DNA of 8,577 nucleotides from a virus. Its lineage: Duplodnaviria; Heunggongvirae; Uroviricota; Caudoviricetes. A program made the position numbers. Positions 6,001-8,577 of the stretch are shown one piece after another. The number at the start of each line of letters is the position of its first letter. Position 1 is the stretch's first letter. The stretch covers positions 1-8,577 of the IMG/VR virus record IMGVR_UViG_2711768070_000012; one strand, 5' to 3'.

Positions 6001-8577
6001 CCGGGCGCAAGATGCAGAGATTGCCACGGTACAGGCCGTGCGGTTGATATAGCCAAAACAGAGCAGTGGGGGATAGTTGCTGAGAAAGAGTGCGGAAGAT
6101 GTAAAGGCGTCGGTTATTCAAGAATGCCAGCAAGCGCCGCATATCGCGCTGTGACGATGCTAATCCCAAACCTTACCCAACCCACCTGGTCACGCACTGT
6201 TAAGCCGCTGTATGACGCTCTGGTTGTGCAATGCCACAAGGAAGAGTCAATCGCAGACAACATTTTGAATGCGATCACACGTTAGCGCCATGATTGCCAC
6301 GGATGGCAACATATTAACGGCATAATATTGACTTTTTGAATAACTTTGGGGAAACTTGACACCAATAATGGGCGTTTTTTACATGTCATTGATGAGTCTC
6401 AATAACCTGCCGCCGAGTAGTTTTTATGCTCTGAATTGTATTTGTGTAGTAAACATGCTGACTGCAATGTAATAGAGTTTTTTTAGCCTGTAACCTCTTG
6501 ACGGCATTGAATTGCTTTTGTTATGAGTTGTAAGCCAATGTTATCATCTTGTATTGGGGTGGTTATGAAGGATGGTGCGCTGCTCAGGAGTTCTTCACTT
6601 TTTATTGCCTACATGGGATGCCTTGGATGGGGGAGTGCTTATTTCTATGGATGGGGTACTTCTTTTTACTACGGCTTCCCATGGTGGATTGTAGGTGCAG
6701 GTGTTGATGATGTTGCCAGAAGTTTATTTTTTGCAGTTATCGTCATTGCTATATTTCTTATCGGTTGGGGTATTGGTGTTGTATTCTTTTTCGCAGTGAA
6801 AAGAAAACATTCTATGCAAGAGCTAAATGTATTTCGCCTTTATTTTGCTGTGGAATTATTGTTTGTGCCGGCAATTATTGAGTTTTCTATATTGAGACAG
6901 AAGATTCAGGTACCTCTTTTGCTACTGTCAGCAGCGATTGCGCTGGCGGTTACAATTTCGATAAGATCTTATGGGCGATTTTTATCGGTATCATGCTTCT
7001 ATGATAAGCCATTTATAAAAAAACATTTTTTTGAGATTGTGATGATTGCTTTTGTGGCATATTTCTGGCTTTTTTCATTTCTGACAGGATATTACAAACC
7101 GCAGTTTAAGAAAGAATATGAAATGATTAATTATAATGATGGTTGGTATTATGTTCTTGCTCGTTATGATAATTGTCTGGTTTTGTCTACTTCTTTCAAT
7201 GCAGGTAGTAAAAGGTTTGTCATTTATCAATCAGCACAAGATAAGAATCTTCAGGTTGATATTGTAAGGACCAGAATTTAATTGGCTGCATAAATAATAT
7301 TTTAAGTTGCAAGTTGGCTATTCGTAGGAATAGAACCTTAGGCATGCTGAATGCGTTTTCTGAACATTGTTTTATAAACTGTGTCTGCTTGCTGTTGTGA
7401 TCCTGCTTTTAGTGATGGTGATGATGGATTTCACCAGCAGGATAATGTTGGTACTGACTGATGGCGCTCTGGTCTGCGGCATTGTGGTATTGCTGTGGCC
7501 GATGATGAAAGAACAGAATGAATAATTCTTGACTTTTTTGTTTACTGTTTATTAAAAAACCAACCGCATGGTGAATCCTCCTTGGAGGGGCTAAATGATC
7601 GAGTTTTAAGGGCACGTAGCGAGTTCTGTTTGATCATTGCAGAACTTAGCGGGAGGCGCCATGCGTACATCACTAATGTTATTTCCTTCTATCATTTTCC
7701 TTGTGAGTTCTGGCTGCGCATGGCGCGGCCTTTTTTTTATGACTTGCCACTGGCAGATGGTCATCCTGTGATTTGATTCCGGTTCCGGCTTTTTAACTCT
7801 GTTCCTGTACACGGGAGAAATTCGATGTCGATTAAACATTACGATGTTGTCAGGGCGGCGTCGCCGTCAGACCTTGCGGAAAAGCTGACACACAAACTGA
7901 AAGAGGGCTGGCAGCCGTTTGGTAGTCCGGTGGCCATAACCCCTTATACCCTGATGCAGGCGATTGCAGCAGAAGGTGATGTGGTGGTCAGTGGTGCAAC
8001 TGAGCCGGATTGGTACTACGTCATCGTACTGGCCGGGCAGTCCAATGCAATGGCTTACGGGGAAGGGCTTCCGCTTCCGGATTCATACGATGCTCCGGAT
8101 CCGCGCATTAAACAGCTGGCGCGCCGCAGTACAGTTACGCCGGGTGGGGCTGCCTGCAGATATAACGATATTATTCCGGCCGACCACTGCCTGCATGATG
8201 TGCAGGATATGAGTACGCTGAATCATCCGAAGGCAGACCTGAGCAAAGGGCAGTACGGCTGTGTCGGCCAGGGCTTACATATTGCCAAACGTCTGCTGCC
8301 GTATATCCCCAAAAATGCCGGGATTCTTCTTGTTCCCTGCTCCCGTGGTGGTTCGGCATTCACCCAGGGCGCGGAGGGGACATTCAGTGCGGATACGGGG
8401 GCCAGCCAGGATTCGGCGCGCTGGGGTGTGGGTAAACCATTATATCAGGACCTGATTGCGCGCACTAAAGCTGCATTACAGAAGAACCCGAAAAATGTGT
8501 TGCTGGCGGTGTGCTGGATGCAGGGAGAGTTTGACATGAGCGCCGCCACCCACGCACAGCAACCTGCGCTGTTTACA

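Follow-up and report, generated by a model that had tools for sequence, protein, structure and literature searches.

What does a lambdoid prophage carry when the position equivalent to that of stx is taken by something else? The question is raised by an 8,577 nt stretch of DNA from a Caudoviricetes virus (IMG/VR record IMGVR_UViG_2711768070_000012, positions 1 to 8,577; the whole stretch is called the window below), which represents the nin-to-late region of a lambdoid prophage. A lambda-type gene for antiterminator Q (5662–6285; PF03589 Antiterm, E 4e-58) is the upstream edge of the slot, and the 5′ part of nanS-p (7825–8577; DUF1737 PF08410, E 1e-15, and SASA PF03629, E 1e-11) is its downstream edge; these, the two genes between them and the regulatory and RNA elements described below are on the + strand. 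Between the two edges lies the gene examined here (6565–7281), referred to as the cargo gene, followed by a small tciB-like gene. The cargo gene encodes a 238 aa inner-membrane protein of the TfpB family, behaves as exchangeable cargo of the slot, is under purifying selection and has relatives that are independent of any phage context. Overall it is best, if still tentatively, explained as an autonomous lysogenic-conversion (‘moron’) envelope protein in the slot between Q with its late promoter pR′ and nanS-p, a protective role included.

No family had been recognised for this protein in the original prediction, a point on which it has to be corrected. The protein is identical to the product of gene 68 of phage 434 (CPT_434_68), belongs to PHROG 1521 (E 2e-154; no function annotated) and shares with all of its homologues a match to PF27470 ‘TfpB’ that is precomputed for its cluster in a large protein database, the model name being obtained via a contig look-up. 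BLASTP against Moraxella bovis TfpB (P0161) gives 29% identity over residues 9–216 (E 1e-23), and the profile match of the family to the same protein reaches E 2e-61. The homology is collinear and full-length, taking in the motif AY-YGWG...YG[YF]PWW...ARSL and a C-terminal YYIL...F pattern, and the two proteins are of similar length (261 aa in M. bovis, 238 aa here), whereas the M. bovis gene is chromosomal and flanked by pilin genes (tfpQ/tfpI inversion region) and the cargo gene is located in a prophage late region. The conserved N-terminal aromatic/Gly motif and the ARSL at the start of the second transmembrane (TM) helix, which are features of TfpB membership, are both present in the cargo protein. 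A closer relative in Salmonella is 46% identical across all 238 residues (E 9e-81). Thirteen residues are invariant in 53 sequences from four bacterial families (A25, Y26, W30, G37, W40, A51, R52, S53, L54, G71, G175, Y196 and F218); no D, E or H is among them. The identity of the protein and its assignment to TfpB (PF27470) are practically secure, and both gene and family are already catalogued, i.e. the sequence was known beforehand.

The family is narrow. An exhaustive phmmer scan returned 56 family proteins among 1.84 billion representatives; a profile search adds members of 20–30% identity in Neisseria, Mannheimia and Moraxella, and a scan of species-representative genomes extends it to Haemophilus ducreyi, Glaesserella, Aggregatibacter (with two copies in each genome), Pasteurella, Conchiformibius and Mesocricetibacter. 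All family hosts are associated with animals: Escherichia, Salmonella, Citrobacter, Klebsiella, Yersinia, Pasteurellaceae, Neisseriaceae and Moraxella. Searches of the cargo protein against local Pfam (a copy without the PF27470 model), NCBIfam and PADLOC produced only chance-level matches. When all 53 family members were searched against the same three collections no weak family recurred, PADLOC matches being scattered and at chance level, and sequence and profile searches of the PDB gave zero matches at E≤10.

To our knowledge, Moraxella TfpB has gone unexplained since it was first described in about 1990, reportedly by Fulks et al. in 1990 and by Rozsa & Marrs in 1991. A literature search found no paper on the function of Moraxella TfpB, nor on the cargo protein; the ‘TfpB’ of recent papers is an unrelated Acinetobacter pilus ATPase. 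In M. bovis the gene, whose product bears the name TfpB at JGI, is located between a complete and a partial pilin gene, and the copies in M. lacunata are truncated, which is consistent with dispensability. Among the members examined a pilin-locus location holds for Moraxella only, and since most members are without it, it is not a defining trait of the TfpB family. Two near-identical ORFs (open reading frames) of 295 and 303 aa lie amid the M. bovis pilin cassettes (L004, 1120–2031 and 4500–5387), with no Pfam match recorded. Considered as TfpY-like partners, they show no similarity to the family (3.9 bits), and by eye their N-termini resemble Rpn-type recombination-promoting nucleases.

The longest reading of the cargo ORF, the sole long ORF of its AT-rich stretch, is 6523–7281 (252 aa). 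The true start is almost certainly the ATG at 6565, because a GGGGTGG Shine–Dalgarno sequence is found 3–9 nt upstream, because the homologues all begin at an equivalent Met or Val, and because 6498–6547, which contains both upstream in-frame ATGs, is a conserved non-coding promoter-like block. On these grounds both longer starts, at 6523 and 6538, were rejected; the 247 aa model from 6538 (PGAP/RefSeq WP_001302581.1 and the phage 434 record) looks over-extended.

The coding sequence is 36.4% GC (31% at third codon positions), as against 50.8% in Q and 56.3% in nanS-p, and the sliding GC content drops from about 0.51 to 0.32–0.42 over about 6150–7650. The GC profile, the Pfam matches of the edges and alignments to HK97-type phages agree with the original description of an AT-rich island between a lambda-type Q with pR′/qut and nanS-p. 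HK97-type phages have only the pR′/qut stretch in common with the window and the cargo gene is absent from them. A moron is expected to be present or absent at the same position among close relatives and to differ from its neighbours in base composition; the cargo gene does both. It is AT-rich wherever it occurs, family copies in every context having 35–42% GC.

The cargo gene is also widespread and maintained. The 1.5 kb cassette (6286–7824) is found at ≥80% coverage, mostly with 95–100% identity, in 682 of 5426 complete E. coli genomes, it is also carried by phages 2B8 and 434, and the exact protein occurs on at least 1000 contigs. Synonymous (dS) and non-synonymous (dN) divergence from phage 434 are 0.013 and 0. 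Larger but unsaturated comparisons, from which the dN/dS range of 0.05–0.09 is drawn, are with Escherichia albertii (L021; dS 0.24, dN 0.013, dN/dS 0.05), with Escherichia sp. (L022; dS 0.31, dN 0.027, dN/dS 0.09) and between two Salmonella copies (L019 versus L023; dS 0.63, dN 0.043, dN/dS 0.07). The gene is intact and under strong purifying selection; an absent or disrupted ORF in close relatives, which the original prediction had named as fatal to it, is not what is seen, the ORF being intact and identical there. One copy, matching the gene of the E. coli prophage at 100% identity, is on a 3 kb contig of a metagenome-assembled genome labelled Veillonella sp. (L020, JAIITD010000172.1), where it is almost certainly a binning contaminant and not a Veillonella gene.

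Phages whose nanS-p is closely related to that of the window hold several kinds of cargo between Q and nanS-p. In Stx1_699 the slot contains stx1AB; in JLK-2012 it contains three tRNAs with tciA (TerB domain) and tciB (DUF3927); in prophages with a 933W-type Q it contains a 68%-identical TfpB-like gene with lpxR and, in some, pmrD; and in the window, as in 434 and 2B8, it contains the TfpB-like gene with tciB. The position was thus aptly described as equivalent to that of stx. No tRNA genes of the kind found in Stx-phage slots were detected in the window. In JLK-2012 tciA (TerB, E 3e-16) overlaps tciB (L013, 3033–3625), and since that slot pairs the two, tciB can have either the TfpB-like gene or tciA as its upstream partner.

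The same conclusion of exchangeability follows from the upstream side. Neighbourhoods were counted in 80 IMG/VR contigs with the identical cargo allele (the best 80 of 188 matches, all 80 with a 100% identical protein). About 48 of them have the lambda-type Q of the window directly upstream, about 31 have an 82/434-type Q together with lpxR, and in nearly all 80 tciB comes after the cargo gene. Because the same allele stands behind different Q types, the cargo is modular, recombining behind Q genes that are unrelated to one another. The mobile unit comprises an old terminator, a promoter-like block and the AT-rich gene, here followed by tciB and a strong terminator.

How might such a module be transcribed in a lysogen? 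Downstream of Q is a pR′/qut-like late promoter (6289–6372), in which the hexamers, compared by eye with lambda pR′, are presumably TTGACT (−35, 6328–6333) and GAAACT (−10, 6351–6356), with a qut-like TTTTGAATAACTTTGGGGAAA. This stretch is 90–92% identical to sequence of HK97, HK106, HK542, mEpX1 and mEp234 that is labelled in their GenBank records as a late promoter with a lambda-like qut site. A decayed tR′-like intrinsic terminator (6404–6425), which aligns with an annotated terminator of phage 434, forms the left boundary of the mobile module. The 434 hairpin upstream of the gene (L001, 3982–4007) is a good terminator at −13.7 kcal/mol (z −3.45), whereas the window counterpart has several substitutions and no stable hairpin (−7.1 kcal/mol, z −0.65). 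The statement that pR′ is not followed by tR′ was accurate in so far as a stable hairpin is missing, but a decayed remnant of the terminator does exist. Lysis genes likewise do not follow pR′ directly, as had been noted, yet they are not missing: in the identical prophage nanS-p is annotated as a 1851 nt SASA (sialate O-acetylesterase) esterase gene and is followed by holin, endolysin and Rz.

Alignment of the 250 nt 5′ of the gene in the window, 434, an enterotoxigenic E. coli (ETEC) plasmid, an iro island, Citrobacter rodentium and other copies shows homology that begins at the terminator-like hairpin and includes a conserved block with CTTGAC..., TTGTTATG and AATGTTAT. This promoter-like block (6498–6547), delimited by the alignment and a consensus scan, persists in four settings whose flanks are unrelated (phage 434, the ETEC plasmid, the iro island and C. 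rodentium). Within it are the candidate hexamers TTGACG (6498–6503) and TGTTAT (6519–6524) with a spacer of 15 nt, and overlapping these is a second consensus match, TTGTTA-N18-TATCAT with a TG extension (6518–6547).

Downstream of the cargo gene, folding of the 85 nt spacer (7282–7366) revealed no convincing terminator before the tciB-like gene (7367–7525), which has a TTG start and encodes 52 aa with two hydrophobic helices (DUF3927 PF13064, E 3.4e-14; PHROG 1470). The first strong intrinsic terminator downstream of pR′ within the window is at 7712–7740; it has an 8 bp stem with 7 GC pairs and a T8 run (−17 kcal/mol, z −3.56; none of 200 shuffles was as stable). Nothing between pR′ and the cargo gene or tciB qualifies as a strong terminator, and these two genes are probably co-transcribed, as judged from the sequence. 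A lysogen would transcribe the cargo gene from its own sigma-70-type promoter. In this prophage constitutive read-through from pR′, without Q, would probably add to this because the intervening tR′-like hairpin has decayed, and Q-modified late transcription would raise expression further on induction. The mRNA would probably include tciB and end at the 7712–7740 terminator.

The analysis bears out the description of the product as polytopic, membrane-embedded and ending in a small C-terminal domain. Kyte–Doolittle hydropathy gives four clear TM peaks, and an AlphaFold model built on 53 diverse sequences (predicted local distance difference test score, pLDDT, 76; predicted template modelling score, pTM, 0.69) has five helices (3–36, 47–79, 89–111, 116–136 and 155–181) and a C-terminal beta domain of five strands in one sheet (187–232). 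A first AlphaFold run on 42 close homologues (pLDDT 60) was discarded. Loop 1 (37–47) has no K or R, loop 2 (79–90) has four and loop 4 (137–155) has five, and by the positive-inside rule this pattern favours an N-in, C-out orientation. The prediction is of a five-TM inner-membrane protein with a beta domain of about 50 residues facing the periplasm; the C-terminal domain had been called small and soluble, of which the first holds and the second, put so simply, does not. The motif shared with M. bovis TfpB, the most conserved of the family, would lie at the periplasmic ends of TM1 and TM2 in the model. Since no acidic residue or histidine is invariant, a binding or blocking protein is likelier than an enzyme. 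Foldseek searches with the model against the PDB and BFVD returned nothing at E≤0.001; MscS/YnaI-like matches were rejected, with TM-scores of about 0.2.

Homologues outside of phages are informative about what the gene can do without. On ETEC plasmids of about 80–220 kb, both porcine and human, a 59%-identical copy lies divergently beside eltAB with estB nearby and insertion sequence elements around. In the five examined (L014–L018) the TfpB-family gene is at 4001–4714, eltAB is at 1987–3134 on the opposite strand and estB (STb) is about 3 kb off. The copy is present in 19 PLSDB plasmids at ≥99% identity, and the protein is indexed in 1285 blocks. The arrangement suggests that the region of the heat-labile enterotoxin (LT) carries a remnant of the phage cargo slot. 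A 57%-identical copy is located between iroBC and a bor/iss remnant. In C. rodentium a 66%-identical copy adjoins lpxR beside adh and methyl-accepting chemotaxis protein (MCP) genes, and near the same adh and MCP genes in Salmonella the 46%-identical copy is found between sseJ (408 aa) and a steB-like ORF of 133 aa. By gene order the Salmonella homologue is STM1630 / SL1344_1560. Like the cargo gene it is AT-rich (36.7% GC) and stands alone in a horizontally acquired patch; unlike the cargo gene it has a fixed chromosomal locus and neither tciB nor nanS-p as a neighbour. In Neisseria, Mannheimia, Aggregatibacter, Pasteurella and their relatives the gene stands by itself, inserted among unrelated housekeeping genes, and no recurrent partner gene was found in the Pasteurellaceae and Neisseria loci. 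Intact copies in decayed or non-phage contexts favour a stand-alone function at the level of the host over a lytic one.

In Glaesserella parasuis (L028) the copy (4974–5702) abuts a cdtC-cdtB-cdtA-like cluster (5955–8017; CDtoxinA/C domains), and in Mesocricetibacter (L025) the copy (4980–5726) abuts HlyD and a C39-peptidase ATP-binding cassette exporter (5888–9454). Adjacency to toxin loci thus recurs, at cdt, the exporter, the stx slot, eltAB and sseJ.

From the sequence evidence it is probable that the cargo gene is a host-beneficial moron expressed in the lysogen. The protein would work on its own on the periplasmic side of the inner membrane, to the benefit of the host and not of the lytic cycle, on an envelope component conserved over Enterobacteriaceae, Pasteurellaceae, Neisseriaceae and Moraxella. 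The favoured guess is a barrier role, in which foreign macromolecules (superinfecting phage DNA or membrane-active bacteriocins, for instance) would be kept from passing through the inner membrane; an exclusion or protection mechanism of this kind is argued by analogy and remains doubtful. Wider still, and more doubtful again, is the proposal that the TfpB family forms a class of single-gene, periplasm-facing inner-membrane protection determinants, conferring phage-entry exclusion or immunity to membrane-active or periplasmic toxins. Such a class would travel with toxin or virulence cargo (the stx slot, eltAB, cdt, an RTX/bacteriocin exporter, sseJ) and would have spread between Enterobacteriaceae, Pasteurellaceae, Neisseriaceae and Moraxella, and its member in this prophage, where tR′ has decayed, would be on constitutively.

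Lambdoid phages supply precedents for the moron interpretation. The term moron, reportedly defined by Juhala/Hendrix, covers stx1/stx2, bor and lom of lambda and gp15 of HK97, all of which, like the cargo gene, are optional late-region insertions of deviant composition with promoter-like sequence and a terminator. The cargo product differs in being a five-TM inner-membrane protein, neither a toxin nor a lipoprotein, and unlike stx2 the cargo gene appears to travel with its own promoter. RexB, T4 Imm, P22 SieA and HK97 gp15 resemble it as small phage-borne, polytopic proteins of the inner membrane that need at most one partner. This is the functional analogy drawn on in the original prediction, whose candidate roles (superinfection exclusion, abortive infection or virulence) are guesses. 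The cargo protein has no similarity to such families in PADLOC, annotated PHROGs or Pfam, however, and the TfpB family is found in non-phage contexts as well. The 434 genome announcement records that the morons of 434 differ from those of lambda and says nothing further on them (PMC9119081).

Several points weigh against a protective moron. The gene of E. coli and 434 is known from sequence alone, and no family member among the 53 matches any PADLOC-DB 2.0 defence model consistently. The promoter is at consensus level and its register is ambiguous between TTGACG-N15-TGTTAT and TTGTTA-N18-TATCAT; in a region-wide promoter scan sites were no more frequent than in shuffles. TM1 is aromatic and Gly-rich and falls under the hydropathy threshold, so that the topology could be wrong, and the AlphaFold model is only moderately confident, being built on a shallow alignment of 53 sequences. 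The Salmonella homologue is equated with STM1630 by gene order alone. An STM1630 mutant has no intracellular-replication defect in macrophages, only the STM2475 mutant being reduced (10.1101/689075), and although an STM1630 deletion was hypermotile in a screen (PMC4219756), this was not reproduced; STM1630 is absent from the 7 of 24 mutants confirmed later (PMC4534456).

The main rival explanation keeps the envelope but drops the phages and bacteriocins: the protein would be a host-interaction or envelope-remodelling virulence factor, acting on lipid A or lipopolysaccharide (LPS), on surface structures or in resistance to host antimicrobials. The confinement of the family (56 representatives) to bacteria of animal mucosa fits this, as do neighbours such as lpxR, pmrD, bor/iss, iroBC, sseJ, steB, pilin genes, eltAB and cdt. 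STM1630 is listed among the genes co-regulated with Salmonella pathogenicity island 2 (SPI-2; PMC2639726), a PhoP/SsrB-type set. It is macrophage-induced, its expression in macrophages being lower in ST313 D23580 than in 4/74 (10.1101/450098), and in ST313 its −10 box is disrupted by two SNPs that silence the gene (10.1101/689075). These Salmonella data also count towards a promoter of the gene's own. However, the normal replication of the STM1630 deletion in macrophages speaks against this explanation too, adjacency to virulence genes may only mirror shared horizontally acquired, phage-derived cargo regions, and the family has neither conserved catalytic residues nor similarity to known lipid A/LPS modifiers. 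On balance a remodelling factor of this kind is unlikely to be the answer.

Less probable still is a joint role, in which the protein would belong to a multi-gene module together with TciB (DUF3927) and/or NanS-p, for example in a two-component membrane complex where it replaces the TerB-like TciA, or as an esterase helper. The regular presence of tciB behind the gene, seen in nearly every one of the 80 IMG/VR contigs as well as in 434 and 2B8, the use of the tciA position of the JLK-2012 slot and the terminator-free spacer would all be explained by a TciB module. Homologues of 46–68% identity nevertheless have no DUF3927 neighbour (the lpxR prophage, the ETEC plasmids, the iro island and Salmonella), the Pasteurellaceae and Neisseria copies have no recurrent neighbour of any kind, and Stx phages carry nanS-p without the cargo gene.

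A late lytic function (lysis timing, an antiholin-like role or release), expressed only from Q-antiterminated pR′ transcripts, is very improbable. It would suit a small membrane protein whose gene stands in the late operon, after pR′ and ahead of the lysis genes, and the good terminator that precedes the gene in 434 would make it Q-dependent unless it has its own promoter. Yet homology to a holin or lysis component, another finding that the original prediction had named as fatal to it, was absent from Pfam, PHROGs, NCBIfam and PADLOC, and the first three held no antiholin or spanin match either. A complete class II holin, endolysin and Rz set is present further downstream, beyond nanS-p, many lambdoid phages that share this pR′/qut do not have the gene, and the family is intact and under purifying selection in phage-free plasmid and chromosomal contexts. 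Equally improbable is a role in type IV pili like that of TfpY/FimB, as a membrane chaperone priming the assembly of pilin: the founding TfpB does lie between two pilin genes of the M. bovis inversion region, and TfpY, TfpX, TfpZ and FimB share the overall plan (about 235–245 aa, an N-in multi-TM anchor, a periplasmic beta-rich C-terminal domain, a pilin neighbour as in Moraxella), but no pilin gene is near any other locus examined, TfpY-like proteins, compared by description, have three TM helices and two beta-sheets against the predicted five and one here, TfpY homologues are widespread in pilus-bearing Pseudomonadota and needed for pilus assembly whereas the TfpB family is tiny and mostly without a pilin neighbour, and the TfpY paper makes no mention of TfpB or Moraxella (PMC11841053).

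The analysis joins four separately annotated hypothetical proteins as one family: the late gene of 434 and this prophage, Moraxella TfpB, the SPI-2-co-regulated Salmonella gene by sseJ and the ETEC gene by the LT operon. As one member is carried by phage 434 and by ordinary E. coli lysogens, standard lambda-type genetics can be used to test its function. A clear phenotype, if found, be it exclusion, toxin immunity or envelope remodelling, would supply an annotation for thousands of genes and might explain why the gene accompanies enterotoxin loci. The cassette is present in roughly one of every eight complete E. coli genomes.

The rest of the window is of the expected lambdoid make-up. From 5′ to 3′ the genes ahead of the slot are the C-terminus of P, ren-like and DUF7301 ORFs, NinB, a Dam methylase, an isrK/C4 RNA cluster with two antirepressor-type genes, NinG, a NinI-type phosphatase and Q. 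At the downstream end of the slot, between tciB and nanS-p, is an STnc100-like structured RNA element (7536–7741; Rfam RF02076), the 3′ end of which is the 7712–7740 terminator. The match is full-length (1–206) and sub-threshold, with 37.5 bits against a gathering score of 47 (E 8.5e-7 in a 381 nt search). Two short ORFs, 7582–7776 (64 aa) and 7637–7771 (44 aa), have no family matches, overlap the element and its terminator and are probably not genes. Similarly, a 62–64 aa ‘putative membrane protein’ ORF in the 434 annotation and a PGAP pseudogene on the opposite strand overlap the STnc100-like element and may be spurious.

In the nin region, Rfam matches to c4-a1b1, isrK and C4 antisense RNA score above threshold at 2672–2870 (50.6, 76.6 and 75.1 bits). 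The two antirepressor-type ORFs that follow are at 2924–3601 (ORF6N and P22_AR_C) and 3670–4398 (Rha and ANT/KilAC). Together with the RNAs they are a P1/P7-type C4 antisense immunity module, like the isrK locus of Gifsy-1.

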